From contig CAVZEM010000007.1 in the NCBI GenBank assembly GCA_963774305.1, positions 93,231-157,230 of the forward strand: DNA of 64,000 nt, written 5' to 3'. The notes under the pieces were generated by a model. The model saw only the letters and a program-made list of their open reading frames with translations, did not search any database and had not been told where the DNA came from. This DNA comes from an uncultured Solirubrobacterales bacterium. Its GTDB lineage: Bacteria > Actinomycetota > Thermoleophilia > Solirubrobacterales > 70-9. The first letter of the stretch is position 1, and each line of letters opens with the position of its first letter. Below are positions 4,197-64,000 of this stretch, in pieces. Position numbers and translations under genes: made by a program.

Positions 4197-5158
4197 AGGT
4201 TGCGGTTCTAGGCGGCGGGATCTCGAGCGAGCATGAGGTGTCGCTGCGCTCGGCGGCCTCGGTCGCCGCTGGTCTCCGGGAGGCGGGCCACGAGACCGTC
4301 GAGGTGACCATCGACCGCGAGGGACGCTGGACGACCGACGGCGAGGCGGTCAGCTTCAGTCCGGCCGGGGGCCTCCTGGACTGCGACGTCGCGTTCCCGG
4401 TCCTGCATGGCCCCGGGGGAGAGGACGGCAGCGTTCAGGGGCTGCTGCAGGTCCTCGCCGTCCCCTACGCGGGCTCCGACGTGGAGGCCTCGGCGATCTG
4501 CATGGACAAGCTCGTCTTCAAGGACCTGCTCGCCCGGCACGGCATCCCGCAGGTCGAGTACTGCCGGGCTGGGGAGGCCGACTGGAAGGCGATCGCCTCG
4601 GGATTCGGCCAGCCGGTCTGGGTGAAGCCCGCGCGGCTCGGCTCCAGTGTGGGGATCGCACCCGCCTCCGGTGAGGAGGAGCTCGACCGCGCCGTCGAGC
4701 AGGCGGGCCGCCACGACCCGCGCGTGATCGTGGAGGCGCCCGCGCCGGGCAAGGAGGTCGAGTGCTCGCTGCTCGGCAACGAGGAGCCGATCGCCTCACC
4801 GCCGGGCGAGATCGATACCAAGGGGCACGATTGGTACGACTACGAAGCCAAGTATGCGGAGGGCGGGATGGAGCTGGTGGTCCCGGCGCGCATCTCCGAT
4901 CAGGCGACGGAGCGCCTTCGCGGGCTCGCCAGGGAGGTGTTCACCCTCTGCGGGTGCAGTGGCCTCGCGCGCTGCGACTTCTTCGTCGACGGCGACGTGG
5001 TGCTCGTCAACGAGCTCAACACGATCCCCGGCTTCACCGAGACCAGCGTCTACGGCAAGCTCTTCGAGGCGGACGGGATCTCCTATCCCGAGCTCTGCGA
5101 CCGGCTCGTGAAGCTGGCGTTCGAGCGCCACGAGAGGGCGCGCTCGTACGAGTTCTAG
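4193..5158 (+). CDS. ddl: D-alanine--D-alanine ligase
   Basis: MKVAVLGGGISSEHEVSLRSA N-terminus, ATP-grasp core and C-terminal NELNTIPGFT motif. ATGA overlap with the pknB stop. Confidence 0.92.
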   Translation: MKVAVLGGGISSEHEVSLRSAASVAAGLREAGHETVEVTIDREGRWTTDGEAVSFSPAGGLLDCDVAFPVLHGPGGEDGSVQGLLQVLAVPYAGSDVEASAICMDKLVFKDLLARHGIPQVEYCRAGEADWKAIASGFGQPVWVKPARLGSSVGIAPASGEEELDRAVEQAGRHDPRVIVEAPAPGKEVECSLLGNEEPIASPPGEIDTKGHDWYDYEAKYAEGGMELVVPARISDQATERLRGLAREVFTLCGCSGLARCDFFVDGDVVLVNELNTIPGFTETSVYGKLFEADGISYPELCDRLVKLAFERHERARSYEF

Positions 5159-5283
5159 CGGCCACCAGGCCGTTCCACTTGACCAAACGGGTCGCGCTTA
5201 CGCGCGCCCTCGCATCAAGGGCGAAGCCCGTAGCGACTTCTAGAAGGCGGCCGCTTGTGGCCGCGACCTGATGGCGAAGCCGT
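5158..5283 (-). repeat. Composite intergenic repeat: R2 element (reverse orientation) with an R1 30-nt hairpin (5185..5214) nested in it
   Basis: Its reverse complement aligns end to end with the R2 copies at 12398, 24666 and 28050. The third stem-loop is replaced by AAACGGGTCGCGCTTACGCGCGCCCTCGCA. It exactly fills the gap between the ddl TAG and the kinase TGA. Confidence 0.85.
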
Positions 5284-6770
5284 CAGGCATTACTTAAGAG
5301 TCTCACGTCGCTGATTTCCATCTGGTACCGCCCGGGATCGTCCTTGGCGTGGGGCGGCTTGGTGATCCAGATCAGGAACGACTGGGCGGGCTTGCCGGGA
5401 AGGCGGACCGTCTCGTTGCCGCCGCCGTCGGTGACGGTTGCAACCGGCTGACCCCAGCCGAAGAGGTCGCTGGGCGGCGAGCCGTCCGACTCGTAGATCT
5501 GGGCGTCCCAGCCGGGGGTGGGGCTCCTGATCTCGATCGACGTGGCGGTCACCGCGTTCCCGGCATCGATCGCGAGGCCCACGCCGTCCTTGAGGCCCCC
5601 GAAGTCCTGCGTGTCGTAGTGCTCGGTCGTCCAGGCGGTCCCCGTCGGGTTGGAGTCGACCGCGAGCCGCTGGGTCCCGGTCTCCCGGCCGTCGGCCTCC
5701 GGATCGAACTCGCTGGCGGCGTCGGTCGGCAGCCTGATCTCTTTGCTGCCGCCACTGGATGGGCTGTTGTTGCCGATCTGCTCGCCACCGAAGATCACGG
5801 CGGCCGCGATCAGGGCGATTCCGACGAGCCCCATCACGATCCCCAGCCATGGCCGGCGCCCGCCGCCGAGGCGGCGGCGAGCCTTGGGCACGGAATCGAG
5901 GACGCTGGTCGCTTCGCCGCTGGTGCCCCCGCGGCGCGCCGCCTCGACCTCGAGGGTCTGCTCCAGGTCGCGGACCATCTCGGCGACGGTGCTGTAACGG
6001 TCGCGCGGGTCCTTGGTGGTCGCCCGGTCGACGACTGAGGCGACGACGGCGGACACGTCCGGCCGCTTCGCCTGGACGTCGGGCATCGGCTCGTTGACGT
6101 GCTTCATTGCCACCCCGACCTGCGTCTCGGCCTGGAAGGGGACGTCTCCGGTGAGCATCTCGTAGAGGACGACACCCAGCGAGTAGACGTCGGAGCGCTC
6201 GTCGACATCCTCACCCATCGCCTGCTCGGGGGATACGTAGTCGGTCGTGCCCAGCACCCGGCCGGTCGCGGTCATCCCCTTCTGCTCCAGCGACCGCGCG
6301 ATGCCGAAGTCGGTCACCTTCGCCCGCCCGTCGGGGTCGATCAGCACGTTCTGCGGCTTCACGTCCCGGTGGACGAGCTTGCGCGCATGGGCGGCCGTCA
6401 GGCCGCGCCCGATCTCGATGGCGTAGGCGACCGCCTCGTCGACCGGCAGGGGGCCCTCCTCCTGGATCTGGCGCTTCAGGGTGCGGCCGTCGATGTACTC
6501 GAAGACGATGTAGGGGCGGCCGTCGTCCTCACCCGCGTCGATGACACCGACCAGGTTGGGATGCGAGAGCCGCGCCGCCGCCCTGGCCTCGCGGCGGAAG
6601 CGCTCGAGCTGGTCGGCCTCGTCGGAGATCTCGCGATGGAGCAGCTTGACCGCCACCGGGCGGTCGAGCACCTCGTCGAGCGCCAGGTAGACGGTCGACA
6701 TGCCGCCCGAGCCCAGCTTCGACTCGAGCCGGTAGCGGCCCGAGAGTACGGTGGAGCTCAAACGTTCCAA
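5283..6770 (-). CDS. Ser/Thr protein kinase with TM segment and extracellular C-terminal beta-rich (carbohydrate-binding-like) domain
   Basis: GSGGMSTVYLA, HRDVKPQN, DFGIA and SPEQ motifs; TM segment WLGIVMGLVGIALIAAAVIF. I do not recognise the C-terminal domain precisely. Confidence 0.85.
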   Translation of the reverse strand: MERLSSTVLSGRYRLESKLGSGGMSTVYLALDEVLDRPVAVKLLHREISDEADQLERFRREARAAARLSHPNLVGVIDAGEDDGRPYIVFEYIDGRTLKRQIQEEGPLPVDEAVAYAIEIGRGLTAAHARKLVHRDVKPQNVLIDPDGRAKVTDFGIARSLEQKGMTATGRVLGTTDYVSPEQAMGEDVDERSDVYSLGVVLYEMLTGDVPFQAETQVGVAMKHVNEPMPDVQAKRPDVSAVVASVVDRATTKDPRDRYSTVAEMVRDLEQTLEVEAARRGGTSGEATSVLDSVPKARRRLGGGRRPWLGIVMGLVGIALIAAAVIFGGEQIGNNSPSSGGSKEIRLPTDAASEFDPEADGRETGTQRLAVDSNPTGTAWTTEHYDTQDFGGLKDGVGLAIDAGNAVTATSIEIRSPTPGWDAQIYESDGSPPSDLFGWGQPVATVTDGGGNETVRLPGKPAQSFLIWITKPPHAKDDPGRYQMEISDVRLLSNA

Positions 6771-39306: not shown

Positions 39307-39379
39307 TGGAGCTAGCCGGACTCGAACCGGCGACCTCCTGGGTGCGATCCAGGCGCTCTCCCAACTGAGCTATAGCCCC
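39307..39379 (-). tRNA. tRNA-Ala (anticodon CGC)
   Basis: Reverse complement: GGGGCTATAGCTCAGTTGGGAGAGCGCCTGGATCGCACCCAGGAGGTCGCCGGTTCGAGTCCGGCTAGCTCCA. Clean cloverleaf with the G3:U70 Ala identity pair. CCA is not encoded. Confidence 0.95.
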
Positions 39380-43663: not shown

Positions 43664-43736
43664 GGGGCCATAGCTCAGTTGGGAGAGCGCGGCGTTTGCA
43701 ACGCCGAGGGCGCGGGTTCGAGCCCCGCTGGCTCCA
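43664..43736 (+). tRNA. tRNA-Ala (anticodon TGC)
   Basis: GGGGCCATAGCTCAGTTGGGAGAGCGCGGCGTTTGCAACGCCGAGGGCGCGGGTTCGAGCCCCGCTGGCTCCA. G3:U70 is present; CCA is not encoded. A TACAAT hexamer sits at 43647..43652 upstream. Confidence 0.95.
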
Positions 43737-44184
43737 CTAGAGGCTCCTGACGCATCGGTGGAGTCTCCGGTGCCAAGTGGTCATCGGCAAAGCGGATTCC
43801 CCGGCGCTGGCCATTCCGGGCGTCGGTGAGCCGCAAGTGGATCAGGTCCATCCCGGTACCCAACTCGGTTGCAGGGATGTAGAAGCATCGTTTCGTCGTG
43901 ACGTCGTAGACAGCTAGCCAATCGATGGTCGCGGATGTGTACCGCTTGATCTGCTTCACCTTCCCATTCGTGAGCGACGCTGATCGGCAGCGAACGGGGA
44001 CGACGTTGCCGTCCGAGCGGGCGTACTTGACCTGAACTCGCTCGAGCCGGTCCTCGCGGATCAGGATCAGGTCGAAGTCGTTGTCCTCACCGAACGGGAT
44101 CGCGACTCGATAGCCGCGCTTGATCAGGTCGGCGGCGATCTTGAGCTCCGCCAGATCTCCCTTTGTCTTCAGTGATGCCATCAC
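43675..44184 (-). CDS. PD-(D/E)XK endonuclease (PDDEXK_5-like; group-I-intron-endonuclease-related fold)
   Basis: KGDLAELKIAADLIKRGYRVAIPFGEDNDFDLILIREDRLERVQVKYA. The ORF has no stop until 43675, so its last roughly 20 codons are antisense to the tRNA-Ala 3' half. Confidence 0.65.
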   Translation of the reverse strand: MMASLKTKGDLAELKIAADLIKRGYRVAIPFGEDNDFDLILIREDRLERVQVKYARSDGNVVPVRCRSASLTNGKVKQIKRYTSATIDWLAVYDVTTKRCFYIPATELGTGMDLIHLRLTDARNGQRRGIRFADDHLAPETPPMRQEPLVEPAGLEPAPSALQTPRSPN

Positions 44185-58677: not shown

Positions 58678-59417
58678 CAGCCGCCCCGCTCCGCTCGGGC
58701 CGCGGGGTCGACGGCCCCGAACAGCGTGGTCGCCGCGGCTCGCGGATCCGGAGCGTCGCGGATCGCCCTGACCACGCAGAGCCGTTCCGCGCCCGCCGAG
58801 ACGACCTCGTCCGCGTTCTCGGCGTCGATCCCGCCGATGGCGAACCAGGGCTTCTCCGCGATCTCGGTCGCTTCGCGGATCAGCTCCGGGCCGGTCGCGG
58901 GGCGCCCCGCCTTGGTGGGCGTCTCCCAGATCGGGCCGACGCTGATGTAGTCGACGGGAGCCTTCGCGGCGGCCTCGATCTGCTCCCGGCTGTGGGTCGA
59001 AAGACCGATGATCGCGCTGGGGCCCATGATCCGCCGCGCCTCGGCCGGGGCCATGTCGTCCTGGCCCACATGGACGCCGTCGGCGCGCAGCTCGAGCGCG
59101 AGGTGGGGATCGTCGTTGACGATGAAGAGCGCGCCGTAGGTGTTGGCGAGCCTGCGGAAGGTGTGGCCCGAGCGCTCGACGACGTTTCGCGGATGCTCCC
59201 GGTCGCGCAGCTCGATCATCCCCGCCCCGCCGCTCATCGCGGCGTTCAGCAGGGCCTCGGGCTCCCGGCCATGAGGCCGGGCGTCGCAGACGAAGTAGAG
59301 GCGCGCCCAGCGCAGTCGCTGGCGCCGCAACTCCCCGATTGCCTCGGGGGGTGCGAGATGAGTCGGGCCGGGGGCGGCTTCGGTCACTGCACGAGCAAGG
59401 GTACGATGAACTTGCAA
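58677..59417 (-). CDS. thiE: Thiamine-phosphate synthase
   Basis: RLYFVCD, FIVNDDPHLALELRADGVHVGQDD, IIGLSTHS, YISVGPIWETPTK and FAIGGI motifs. The exact start is uncertain. Confidence 0.85.
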   Translation of the reverse strand: MQVHRTLARAVTEAAPGPTHLAPPEAIGELRRQRLRWARLYFVCDARPHGREPEALLNAAMSGGAGMIELRDREHPRNVVERSGHTFRRLANTYGALFIVNDDPHLALELRADGVHVGQDDMAPAEARRIMGPSAIIGLSTHSREQIEAAAKAPVDYISVGPIWETPTKAGRPATGPELIREATEIAEKPWFAIGGIDAENADEVVSAGAERLCVVRAIRDAPDPRAAATTLFGAVDPAARAERGG

Positions 59418-59505
59418 CGGGAGCCCACCAAAGGGCTGAGAGGGCGGCTGAAGCGCCGCCGACCGTCTGAACCTGATCCGGGTAATGCCGGCGCAGGGAG
59501 GTTGG
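59414..59505 (+). promoter_or_regulatory. TPP (THI-box) riboswitch
   Basis: CAACGGGAGCCC...GGGCTGAGAGG...ACCGTCTGAACCTGATCCGGGTAATGCCGGCGCAGGGAGGTTG matches the conserved CUGAGA and ACCUGAUCnGGnUAAUGCCnGCGnAGGGA cores. It lies about 25 nt upstream of thiO. Confidence 0.9.
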
Positions 59506-59527
59506 AGCGCCTCGGCCGCAGGTAGCG

Positions 59528-62350
<2,823 letters not shown>

Positions 62351-62366
<16 letters not shown>

Positions 62367-64000
62367 AGAAGATCGAGAGAGAGAAGGGAAGGAGCCTGCC
62401 GGGCTTGGATGTCGAGCGCGTCCGCACGTTCGACGCCCCGGAGGCCCTCGGCATCAACTTCCACGAAGTCCGGGCCAAGTCGGCGCTCAACAAGGTGCCG
62501 GGCGACTACCTGCCGTTCAACTACACGGTCAACGCCTTCCGAGGCTGCACCCATGCGTGTGTTTACTGCCTAGGGGGAGATACGCCCATCCTGATGGCTG
62601 ACGGCGGCAGCAAGCGGCTGGCCGAAGTACGGGTCGGAGACGATGTCTACGGAACGGTGCGGCGCGGCAAGTACCGGCGCTACGAACAGACCAAAGTCCT
62701 GGCCCACTGGCAGAGCTGCAAGGAGGCGTATCGGATCACCCTGATGGACGGCACAGAGCTCATTGCTAGTGGCGATCACCGATTCTGGACTCGACGCGGG
62801 AAATGGAAGCACGTCACCGGGGCTGAGCAGGGTCGCAATCGGCGTCCACACCTGACGCTGAATGATGAATTGGCGGGAACCGGCGAATTCGCAGCCGCGC
62901 CAACGGAATCAAGCGATTACAAGCAGGGATATCTGTGCGGGATGGTGCGAGGCGATGGTCACCTGGGGTCGTATTCCTATGCGCGACCGGGGCGCCGAAG
63001 CGGAGACGTCCATCGCTTTCGGCTCGCGCTAGCGGATCTGGAGGCCCTGCGTCGGACGAAGTCCTATCTAGATGACGTCAACGTTGGGACTCAGGAGTTC
63101 CAATTTCATGCCGCCACCGCCGACCACCGCGAGATCACCGCGATCCGGACGTCCGCGCGGGCAAGCGTGGAAGCCGTCGCCGATCTCATCAGCTGGCCCC
63201 GAGACCCCAGCTCTGACTGGGTCAAAGGATTCCTGGCCGGCATTTACGACGCGGAGGGCAGCTTCGCAAGTGGCCGGATCGCCAACACCGACCCCGAGAT
63301 CCTCAATTGGATTGCATATTGCCTCCGGCGTCTCGGGTTCTCCTATGTGCAGGAACGGACCAGCAACCCAAATGGGCTCACGTATGTCCGACTCACTGGA
63401 GGATTGAAAAACAGACTCCGGTTCTGCCAGTCGGTGAATCCGGCGATTAGCCGCAAGCGCTCGATCCAAGGCATCGCTTTGAAATCGGATGCCGACCTCC
63501 GGGTTGCATCGATCGAACCACTTGGCAAGCGGCTGCGGATGTACGACATCACGACTGGAACTGGGGACTTCATCGCCAACGGCGTGGTCAGCCACAACTG
63601 CTTCGCCCGCAACACGCACACCTACCTGGACCTCGACGCCGGCCGCGACTTCGAGCGGGAGATAGTCGTCAAGGTCAACGTTCCCGAGCTGCTTCGGGCC
63701 GAGCTCAGCAAGTCGAGCTGGAAGCGGGAGCTCGTCGCCTTCGGGACCAACACCGACCCGTACCAATGGGCCGAGGGGAAGTACGAGCTGATGCCGCCGA
63801 TGATCGAGGCACTGCTAGAAACCGAGACGCCGACGTCGATCCTGACGAAGTCACCGCTCGTCACCCGCGATCTCGATCAATATCTCGAGCTCGCTGAGGT
63901 GGCGGACGTCTCGGTCAACTTCTCGGTCCCGACCCTCGACGAGAAGATCTGGCGCCAGACCGAGCCGCACACGCCGCACCCCCGCAAGCGCCTTGAGGCG
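62351..64000 (+). CDS. Rv2578c-family radical SAM protein, interrupted by an intein, 3' partial (runs off the window)
   Basis: Absent from the ORF track because it has no stop in the window. Open frame of 550 codons from the ATG at 62351. Exteins: MRWDSQ...FHEVRAKSALNKVPGDYLPFNYTVNAFRGCTHACVY / CFARNTHTYLDLDAGRDFEREIVVKVNVPELLRAELSKSSWKRELVAFGTNTDPYQWAEGKYELMPP... Confidence 0.9.
62567..63598 (+). mobile_element. Full-size intein (344 aa) with LAGLIDADG homing endonuclease domain
   Basis: Block A CLGGDTPILMADG; block B LIASGDHRFWT; LAGLIDADG motifs GYLCGMVRGDGHL and KGFLAGIYDAEGSF; blocks F/G MYDITTGTGDFIANGVVSHN; +1 residue Cys. Confidence 0.9.

Follow-up and report, generated by a model that had tools for sequence, protein, structure and literature searches.

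A LAGLIDADG intein interrupts the CxxxCxxC motif of an Rv2578c-like radical SAM protein encoded by a Solirubrobacterales bacterium

The window, a 64,000-nucleotide stretch of DNA from a Solirubrobacterales-type actinomycete, ends within a plus-strand gene that is open in frame 2 from the ATG at 62351 to the last nucleotide (62351-64000; 550 stop-free codons by translation). The earlier note on this DNA had pointed out that the gene is absent from the ORF track, and the cause is that the ORF lister skips a frame that runs past the window end. Translation bears out the division of the product that the note had drawn, with boundaries at 62566/62567 and 63598/63599. The N-extein (62351..62566, +; residues 1-72) ends ...NAFRGCTHACVY and begins with M1, R2 and W3, which are invariant across six intein-free homologues. 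The intein (62567..63598, +; residues 73-416, 344 aa, CLGGDTPIL...GVVSHN) lies between ...GCTHACVY and CFARNTH.... The C-extein (63599..64000, +) runs from residue 417 as CFARNTHTYLDL...GTNTDPYQ, and its first 134 residues are within the window. As the C-exteins of relatives are about 265-300 aa long, some 135 further residues are expected beyond the window end, where a defect in the gene is conceivable; the intein-free orthologues P0121-P0123 terminate in ...QTKLF. The ORF upstream on the minus strand gave no Pfam or NCBIfam match.

Two Cys residues of a cluster motif are found in the N-extein, Cys66 (62546-62548, +) and Cys70 (62558-62560, +; position -3 relative to the intein), and the third is the first residue of the C-extein, Cys+1 (63599-63601, +). 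Splicing in silico yields C66-THA-C70-VY-C. The intein thus separates the second Cys from the third in the CxxxCxxC motif of a radical SAM protein of Rv2578c-like (COG1533) type, and its +1 nucleophile is the third cluster-motif Cys, both as the earlier note had read them. After this in-silico splicing the protein belongs to the radical SAM superfamily (PF04055): the joined exteins score 38.0 bits against Pfam Radical_SAM from model position 2 (cut-off 29.5), and the interrupted precursor, matched in its C-extein, scores 26.4 bits, under the same cut-off. A point missed in the earlier note is that the unspliced linear precursor still displays the CxxxCxxC spacing, as C66-x3-C70-x2-C73, thanks to the intein Cys1, which replaces the third Cys.

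By far the best NCBIfam matches of the window protein are NF038136, 'intein-containing Rv2578c family radical SAM protein' (E 2.5e-173), and NF038135 (E 1.2e-85). The NF038136 model holds an intein at positions 76-334 and a C-extein from 335, which is the same site; the novelty that the earlier note had claimed for an intein at this position therefore falls. The window protein, with its gene cut by the window end, aligns to model positions 1-467 of 574 with 578 bits. The curated whole-protein cut-offs of NF038136 and NF038135 (700 and 430 bits) are not reached. A full-length relative with 97% extein identity (L003) scores 663.9 on NF038136, and the intein-free orthologue P0121 scores 405.4 on NF038135, which places the clade just outside NCBI's strict equivalog definition. 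The host protein is filed here as Rv2578c-like (COG1533, 'SplB/DNA repair photolyase'), on a neighbouring branch and not as a strict equivalog.

All of the hallmarks listed in the earlier note are present in the 344-residue insert. Its N-terminal splicing (Hint) region (62567..62896, +; intein residues 1-110) starts with the N-terminal nucleophile residue Cys1 (62567-62569, +) and contains the SxxH of block B, S68-G-D-H71 (62768-62779, +). The LAGLIDADG homing-endonuclease domain (62897..63466, +; approximately residues 111-300) carries both motifs, GYLCGMVRGDG (62927-62959, +; residues 121-131) with catalytic D130 and GFLAGIYDAEG (63227-63259, +; residues 221-231) with catalytic E230. Blocks F and G form the C-terminal splicing region (63467..63598, +), in which D327-ITTGTGDFIANGVVSHN344 (63545-63598) closes with the terminal SHN that precedes Cys+1.

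Profile searches for Hint, LAGLIDADG_3 and Radical_SAM had been proposed as a check on these assignments. Besides the joined-extein Radical_SAM match, LAGLIDADG_3 is well supported (34.7-36.5 bits; cut-off 22.5), as is TIGR01443 intein_Cterm (18.5 bits; cut-off 15.6). The Hint domain is the divided case: Pfam Intein_splicing stays below its cut-off (29.6-31.6 bits against 35.8), and Hom_end_hint and TIGR01445 intein_Nterm match the N-terminal splicing region weakly, but the Hint fold is recovered by AF2 modelling and comparison with the PDB. The LAGLIDADG_3 score, the NF038136 E-value and the gap-free extein alignment described below argue that the insert is an intein and not a chance match.

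The AF2 model of the intein has a pLDDT of 94.9 and a pTM of 0.90, and its N-terminal splicing region is all-beta (pLDDT 84-98). Sequence searches of the PDB returned gp41-1 mini-intein as the sole match to the intein (E 5.6e-4) and no match to the host enzyme, so a fold search was needed. The closest PDB folds found by Foldseek are PI-PfuI (1dq3; E 8.8e-15), TliVMA and PI-SceI (1vde/1ef0). Together with PhoVMA (TliVMA/PhoVMA: 7qsu/7qss/7qst), these share the Hint plus two-motif LAGLIDADG architecture of the window intein, with E-values of 8.8e-15 to 1e-10. The endonuclease core also has the fold of I-DmoI (1b24, 2vs7), with a TM score of 0.69-0.77 (about 0.75) and an rmsd of approximately 3.4 Å in the AF2 model. 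These structural matches differ from the window intein in their host proteins and share only 13-21% sequence identity with it. The relative domain orientation also differs, giving a whole-chain rmsd of about 15 Å, and the window intein is smaller, at 344 aa against 360-540 aa in the PDB inteins. Cys1, block B, the block F Asp, H343, N344, Cys+1, an empty site in relatives and the fold identify the element as a class-1 intein. By its motifs, profile score and fold, the inner domain is a two-motif, monomeric LAGLIDADG homing endonuclease, for which DNA cleavage is predicted.

Exactly these 1032 nt are missing from two syntenic relatives, L081 and L082, which share the thiO-thiS/thiG neighbourhood of the window locus. 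Window positions 62350-62569 and 63597-64000 are collinear with their positions 5000-5219 and 5215-5618, and their empty site reads ...TTCCGAGGTTGCGCACATGCCTGTGTTTAC/TGCTTCGCCCGCAACACGCAC... (here and below, a slash marks an insertion boundary). At the protein level, no gap opens when the joined exteins are aligned with six intein-free homologues of 80-95% identity. The earlier note had accepted that an equivalent 344-residue domain in such homologues would defeat its reading; the orthologues lack exactly these 344 codons.

Conservation was assessed in 80 loci, from 80 independent assemblies, that were fetched from a total of 475 genome loci. All 80 carry an intein at the same site, with lengths of 339-355 aa and no mini-intein among them; L060, for example, carries the allele ...CTY/C...SHN/CFSR. 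Among the splicing residues of these copies, C1 is conserved in 100%, H71 and S68 in at least 97%, and D327, H343 and N344 in at least 97-100%. The catalytic acidic residues of the endonuclease are likewise retained (D130 in at least 97%, E230 in at least 90%). The median pairwise identity among the intein copies is 0.58, and the closest database intein is 65-66% identical to that of the window. For 25 close pairs, dN/dS of the endonuclease domain is 0.08-0.40, alongside 0.07-0.41 for the splicing regions. The endonuclease domain is under purifying selection, which, like the presence/absence polymorphism of the intein, lends indirect support to the predicted cleavage of intein-free alleles.

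The earlier note had proposed horizontal acquisition on the strength of hand-counted G+C contents of 55-58% in the intein and 68-70% in the exteins. These counts do not hold: G+C comes to 61.1% in the intein against 63.0% and 64.7% in the exteins, in a window of 68.8%. The proposal itself stands on other evidence, namely third-position composition, synonymous divergence and intein-free alleles. GC3 is 0.712 in the intein, 0.875 in the N-extein and 0.896 in the C-extein. The intein value lies 5.3 SD below (z = -5.3) that of 344-codon segments taken from 40 likely genes of the window, a reference set pre-filtered at GC3 > 0.8, and in all 79 loci compared the intein has a lower GC3 than the exteins. 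Relative to L003, the nearest relative, the exteins show 91% nucleotide identity and a dS of 0.44, whereas the intein shows 61% identity and a saturated dS of about 3.7; the size of this contrast is approximate, since NG86 underestimates dS in strongly GC3-biased exteins. Furthermore, the exteins of intein-free alleles are 95% identical to those of the window. The intein was very probably acquired horizontally.

No co-conversion tract was seen: positions that differ from L003, L081 and L082 do not cluster near the junctions. A tblastn search with the intein for phage and plasmid copies gave at best 26-28% identity over the full length, and thus no close copy and no vector. A gene of phage Rctr197k annotated 'radical SAM protein-like' was considered and dropped, because its intein lies outside any Cys motif (...FMQRY/C...TKN/CEGH).

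A LexA-type SOS box, CGAACATACGTTCG (62337..62350, no strand assigned), adjoins the start codon of the host gene. The 16-mer GCGAACATACGTTCGA departs from TCGAAC-N4-GTTCGA at a single position, and no other strict box occurs in the 64-kb window, where 0.14 would be expected. The box is conserved: of 79 related loci, 55 have a strict match ahead of the gene and 68 have the core. The intein-free alleles L081 and L082 are preceded by it as well, at -49 and -50. A promoter and terminator scan of 62150-62450 returned no sigma-70-type site. In M. tuberculosis, ChIP-seq identified Rv2578c as a target of LexA (peak 20), and its induction by DNA damage is RecA-dependent (PMC3381160). By its conserved consensus box, the window gene is a predicted member of the LexA/SOS regulon, with LexA binding predicted from sequence. 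A conserved LexA SOS box at the start codon is new here.

Related inteins also occupy cluster motifs in other host families. Among 2055 representatives there are homologues of this intein, about 40% (35-50%) identical along their whole length (E-values 1e-48 to 1e-83), that interrupt the same CxxxCxx/C site in DUF5131/Gp37-Gp68 proteins, B12-binding radical SAM enzymes and other PF04055 proteins. The C...HN/C pattern with its Cys-3/Cys1 arrangement is found in 119 of 125 flanked copies, and H71 in all 121 copies compared across hosts. Single-linkage clustering of exteins merges all COG1533-like hosts, so host classes were assigned by motif and, for representatives, by Pfam, and class counts are rough. 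For related inteins that share a conserved motif across non-orthologous hosts there is a precedent in ATPase domains (Novikova et al., PMC4760082). The pattern is the same, but the motif here is the radical SAM cluster loop. Among the papers listed in a search of non-subscription literature and judged by title, none gives an account of an intein clade at this motif, and the occurrence of related inteins at one CxxxCxx/C site across several host families is new here.

It is proposed, with a probability of roughly 0.92, that the locus encodes a class-1 intein with an intact LAGLIDADG endonuclease inside the CxxxCxxC motif of an Rv2578c-like enzyme, and that this element splices and homes as follows. 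DNA damage would lead to LexA-controlled transcription and translation of the precursor. The Hint domain would then catalyse an N-S acyl shift at Cys1 and trans-thioesterification to Cys+1, after which cyclisation of Asn344, assisted by His343, and an S-N shift would complete the reaction. Joining of ...GCTHACVY to CFARNTH... would restore the cluster-binding loop, so that the mature enzyme could bind its cluster and SAM; splicing is probably a requirement for cluster binding, as the earlier note had stated outright. The freed intein would act as a monomeric LAGLIDADG endonuclease that cuts intein-free alleles at ...GTTTAC/TGCTTCGCC..., and recombinational repair would copy the intein into the cut allele. 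Homing of this kind would keep the element polymorphic and allow it to move between lineages.

The same genomic data bear on two readings that would deny the element its mobility or its identity. The intein might be a fixed, immobile remnant that still splices but has an inactive endonuclease and is inherited vertically alone. The lack of co-conversion tracts near the junctions and of any phage or plasmid copy would suit such a history, and the low pairwise identity of the copies could reflect age. The endonuclease, however, has kept its catalytic acidic residues and a low dN/dS, the 80 genome loci contain no mini-intein, comparison with the nearest relatives gives a far higher dS for the intein than for the exteins, and syntenic relatives have empty sites, all of which render a remnant improbable. 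It is scarcely credible that the enzyme instead keeps the 344 residues for good, perhaps as a LAGLIDADG module co-opted for DNA binding, or that they are an artefact of assembly: all splicing residues show 97-100% conservation, the fold combines Hint with LAGLIDADG, orthologues do without precisely this segment, and 80 independent assemblies share the architecture.

A different proposal, compatible with mobility, adds a host-level function. The intein may have been domesticated as a post-translational switch, in which redox state or metal/Fe-S availability gates splicing and thereby enzyme activation, such that an oxygen-labile repair enzyme matures under suitable conditions alone. The gate would be a disulfide between Cys70 (-3) and Cys1, a CxxC pair, or ligation at the pseudo-motif C66-x3-C70-x2-C73 (Cys1). 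MoaA is a radical SAM enzyme. Reviews (PMC3922620, PMC10663303) describe the Pyrococcus abyssi MoaA intein of Callahan et al. (2011, Nat Struct Mol Biol 18:630), in which a native Cys-3/Cys1 disulfide holds back the first step of splicing as long as it is not reduced, and redox-gated splicing is accordingly not a new idea. The window intein has the same pairing of a Cys at -3 with Cys1 (C70-V-Y-C73), as do the 119 flanked copies noted above, and by analogy a disulfide block is hypothetical here. The two share a radical SAM host and the Cys-3/Cys1 pair; the P. abyssi host is archaeal and its enzyme function is another, and redox control was shown there. Among actinobacterial class-1 inteins, those of M. 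smegmatis DnaB and M. tuberculosis SufB and RecA occupy functional sites in Fe-S proteins or proteins of DNA metabolism and are reported to respond to oxidative stress or metals, mycobacterial DnaB and SufB in particular; their hosts and sites differ from those of the window. The SOS regulation predicted for the host gene would also be in keeping with a switch. Against this, Cys-3 and Cys+1 are host cluster ligands that would be conserved anyway and so provide no independent evidence, close relatives with 95% identical exteins dispense with the intein, and presence/absence polymorphism with a decoupled history is the behaviour of a selfish element. While the spread of the clade over radical SAM cluster loops is observed, the idea that its Cys-7/Cys-3/Cys1 triad mimics CxxxCxxC and gates splicing by disulfide formation or metal/Fe-S ligation is hypothetical and judged unlikely.

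The pairing of this intein with this host has been catalogued before, and it is common among Actinomycetota from soil. Contrary to the earlier note, which had placed the host outside the usual intein hosts, the part of Novikova et al. that is quoted (Mol Biol Evol 33:783, PMC4760082) lists 48 inteins for SplB/COG1533 'DNA repair photolyase' in Actinobacteria, a count that comes directly behind those of GyrA (50) and RecA (56) in that portion of the table. The NF038136 and SplB/COG1533 inteins resemble the window copy in host family, insertion point, class-1 residues and LAGLIDADG endonuclease. The window intein differs in its sequence, which is new, and in its Solirubrobacterales/Thermoleophilia lineage.

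For annotation, the analysis gives a correct reading of a gene that the ORF track missed; PGAP-style naming labels such proteins just 'LAGLIDADG family homing endonuclease' or 'radical SAM protein'. The cluster-motif target shared across hosts makes the clade a natural set of precursors for testing Fe-S or redox control of splicing, and if gating were true, maturation of an SOS-induced, oxygen-labile repair enzyme would be coupled to redox and iron status. Relatives with 95-97% identical exteins either lack the intein or carry one that is just 60% identical, which offers a natural system for study of the homing cycle. The element is apparently invading actively in uncultured soil Actinomycetota. 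With a LexA box before the host gene, the endonuclease would be made while recombinational repair is induced.

Translation of positions 62351–64000 (+ strand) yields 550 codons without a stop, so that frame 2 is open from the ATG to the window end, as the earlier note had read it. Its explanation for the gene's absence from the ORF track also holds, because the ORF lister drops ORFs that run past the window edge. ATG 62351 is the right start codon, since six intein-free homologues all start MRW. Boundaries set by script comprise an N-extein of residues 1–72 (62351–62566), which ends ...NAFRGCTHACVY, an intein of 344 amino acids at residues 73–416 (62567–63598; CLGGDTPIL...FIANGVVSHN), and a C-extein that begins CFARNTHTYLDL at nucleotide 63599, all on the + strand. 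Joined in silico, the exteins read GC66THAC70VYC FARNTH, restoring the CxxxCxxC cluster motif. The joined product aligns without a gap to intein-free proteins (~341 aa, up to 95% identical), and regains a full match to Pfam Radical_SAM (38 bits versus a cut-off of 29.5, from model position 2), which in the precursor covers the C-extein only.

The empty site is precise. Exactly 1032 nt are missing from two syntenic contigs, L081 and L082, in which window positions 62350–62569 and 63597–64000 correspond to positions 5000–5219 and 5215–5618 at 86–89% identity. The gene order around this empty site is thiO, thiS/thiG, minus-strand genes and radical SAM gene. The window itself has a TPP riboswitch (59407–59516, +; 67 bits, gathering score 54.3) and, after it on the + strand, a thiO-like gene (DAO/ThiO-like oxidase; 59528–60694) and a thiS–thiG fusion in a single ORF (60691–61665; ThiS at residues 4–67 and ThiG at residues 74–316). 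A GTG-initiated gene of 198 aa (61662–62258, −) has frame-specific GC3 and a 199-aa homologue in L081, with no match in Pfam or NCBIfam. Elsewhere in the window, two tRNA-Ala genes with anticodons CGC and TGC (39307–39379, −, and 43664–43737, +) lie ~4.3 kb apart on opposite strands.

Domain, family and fold comparisons agree that the insert is an intein, as the earlier note had proposed. In Pfam, LAGLIDADG_3 scored above its cut-off, and Intein_splicing and Hom_end_hint were sub-threshold. In NCBIfam the precursor matches NF038136 best ('intein-containing Rv2578c family radical SAM protein'; 578 bits, E 2.5e-173, over model positions 1–467 of 574, the gene being cut off at the window edge), with the intein-free model NF038135 second (E 1.2e-85). 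The intein alone aligns to NF038136 positions 76–334 and the C-extein from position 335; the curated model therefore has the same insertion point. An AlphaFold2 model of the intein, built from 66 sequences (pLDDT 94.9, pTM 0.90), finds its closest folds in the PDB among the bifunctional inteins PI-PfuI (E 8.8e-15), TliVMA and PI-SceI, and its central domain superposes on I-DmoI with a TM score of ~0.75.

Inteins of this kind are very common. A protein search with the intein alone returned at least 2965 matches, the best 120 of which are 54–66% identical, nearly all across 90–100% of the intein; names among these 120 include 'DNA repair photolyase', 'radical SAM protein' and 'LAGLIDADG family homing endonuclease', the others being 'hypothetical protein' or unnamed. 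Among 1.84 billion cluster representatives, searched exhaustively, 291 matched at E ≤ 1e-30. When one genome was scanned for each GTDB species, 475 related stretches were found; each of the 80 loci kept from these has its intein (339–355 aa) at this insertion point, and the majority come from MAGs of Solirubrobacterales and other Actinomycetota. The nearest, L003, has 82% DNA identity across 5.6 kb and an extein protein 97% identical, a closeness that assigns the window to the order Solirubrobacterales. The earlier note had placed the host outside the usual intein hosts, but an excerpt of a table by Novikova et al. ranks SplB/COG1533 (48 inteins, Actinobacteria) directly after RecA (56) and GyrA (50) (PMC4760082). 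Its claim of novelty, which it had made to depend on the allele not being catalogued already, likewise falls, as NCBI curates NF038136 for exactly this allele. The Thermoleophilia branch lies just beyond the NCBI equivalog thresholds: a full-length relative scores 663.9 against the NF038136 cut-off of 700, and an intein-free orthologue 405.4 against the NF038135 cut-off of 430. Public records accordingly carry generic names, and the host gene is best filed as Rv2578c-like (COG1533) rather than as a strict equivalog. The placement of the intein within the cluster motif of this gene was real and correctly read; the intein itself shares no more than 66% identity with any in the databases and so is new as a sequence, but the host/intein allele is already catalogued.

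Good, if indirect, evidence from sequence comparison suggests that the intein is mobile. It is absent from relatives whose exteins are 82–95% identical, and in the closest intein-bearing relatives the exteins are 88–97% identical and the inteins 60–64%. Against L003, extein dS is 0.44 (91% nucleotide identity) and intein dS is saturated at ~3.7 (61% nucleotide identity); the same pattern of low extein and high intein dS recurs against L001, L002, L004 and L012. A relaxation of selection would not increase dS; the intein and its exteins therefore differ in history. Among intein copies, C1, H71, D327, H343 and N344 are conserved at 97–100%, and the acidic residues of the two LAGLIDADG motifs, D130 and E230, at ≥97% and ≥90%; dN/dS is 0.07–0.41 in the splicing regions and 0.08–0.40 in the endonuclease domain. 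The G+C figures of the earlier note (55–58% versus 68–70%) were not reproduced, the intein having 61.1% and the exteins 63.0% and 64.7% (window, 68.8%), but the contrast stands at third codon positions, with a GC3 of 0.712 versus 0.875 and 0.896. The intein lies 5.3 SD under 344-codon windows drawn from 40 likely window genes pre-filtered for GC3 > 0.8, and intein GC3 is below that of the extein in 79/79 loci (medians 0.80 and 0.88). The dS discord, the GC3 gap and the empty sites support the horizontal acquisition first proposed from base composition. No co-conversion tract was found at the window locus, and phage and plasmid searches with the intein revealed no close copy.

More distant family members (35–50% identical over their full length, E 1e-48 to 1e-83) occupy the same position in other hosts, a spread across radical SAM families that the earlier note had not seen and that adds modest interest. 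The arrangement CxxxCxx|C1...HN|C+1 is present in 119/125 complete flanked copies. By Pfam, the hosts are DUF5131/Gp37-Gp68 proteins, including a ParB_N–DUF5131 fusion (P0268, intein at residue 355), B12-binding radical SAM enzymes and other PF04055 proteins; median intein identity is 57% among Rv2578c-type hosts and 38–43% between host classes. In the B12-binding enzymes P0296 and P0327 the intein precedes the third Cys, and in P0311 the second (SRGCPYR|C...HN|CNFC). At 28% identity, a yet more remote relative lies in a 611-aa DUF5131/Gp37-Gp68 ORF that has no PLSDB gene-table entry, on the Streptomyces sp. P9-2B-2 linear plasmid NZ_CP129127.1 (81342–83177; L084 1339–3174). It interrupts a Cx6CxxC motif ahead of the third Cys (...GCDRVSKGCDN|CLAPE...ICTHN|CYALT), and the joined exteins match PF07505 positions 2–243 of 243 (E 1.9e-99). 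Next to this ORF lies the gene for a 'three-Cys-motif partner protein TcmP'. The 1089-aa phage protein Rctr197k_024 (Virus Rctr197k, KX853510.1; L083 292–3561), whose annotation reads 'radical SAM protein-like', also harbours an intein, full-length and with 26% identity to that of the window. Its insertion (...FMQRY|C...TKN|CEGH) lies outside any Cys motif, with no CxxxCxxC nearby by eye, and the annotation may be wrong. A literature search covering few subscription journals found no paper on this multi-host radical SAM intein clade.

Class-1 inteins and LAGLIDADG endonucleases have an established chemistry, by which splicing would begin with an N–S acyl shift at Cys1, followed by attack of Cys+1, His343-assisted cyclisation of Asn344 and an S–N shift restoring ...CVY-CFAR..., so that the mature enzyme would hold its three cluster ligands in the normal loop. 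The free intein would then cut empty alleles at the loop-encoding sequence, and repair would copy the intein in. The precursor is plausibly unable to bind the cluster. The linear precursor still reads C66-x3-C70-x2-C73, because Cys1 stands in for the third Cys, so that the motif persists at the sequence level. This leaves room for a Cys70–Cys1 disulfide or metal ligation at Cys1 to delay the first splicing step. MoaA is a radical SAM enzyme. According to reviews, the Pyrococcus abyssi MoaA intein is controlled by a Cys-3/Cys1 arrangement (PMC3922620, PMC10663303). The window intein shares this arrangement, which gives the earlier note's speculation on conditional splicing a direct precedent. 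Conservation of Cys-3 and Cys+1 is uninformative on gating, as both are cluster ligands in any case, and a role for the intein as a physiological switch is considered unlikely.

A further feature absent from the earlier note, also of modest added interest, is an actinobacterial LexA-type SOS box, the 14-mer CGAACATACGTTCG (62337–62350), which directly precedes the radical SAM start codon and is the sole strict LexA match in the window (0.14 expected). A strict box lies upstream of the gene in 55/79 relatives and its core in 68/79; it also precedes the intein-free alleles, at −49 in L081 and −50 in L082, where a purine-rich leader follows. In the window and L003 the box is at −14, with no space for a ribosome-binding leader, and the mRNA of this lineage may be leaderless. 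Opposite window positions 62259–62350, L081 (3920–5000) and L082 (4239–5000) have ~1 kb that is missing from the window and L003. It encodes a 215-aa uracil-DNA-glycosylase-family protein (PF03167) and, in L081, an additional 93-aa ORF, divergent from the radical SAM gene. In the few loci compared, this second DNA-repair gene by the SOS box is present or absent without regard to the intein.

In Mycobacterium tuberculosis, ChIP-seq identified Rv2578c as a target of LexA, and its induction depends on RecA (PMC3381160). Together with the box and its conservation, these data mark the host as a probably damage-inducible, putative DNA-repair enzyme. Inteins are known to favour proteins of replication and repair, a pattern that such a host matches and, given the SOS box, the endonuclease would be made during induced recombination.
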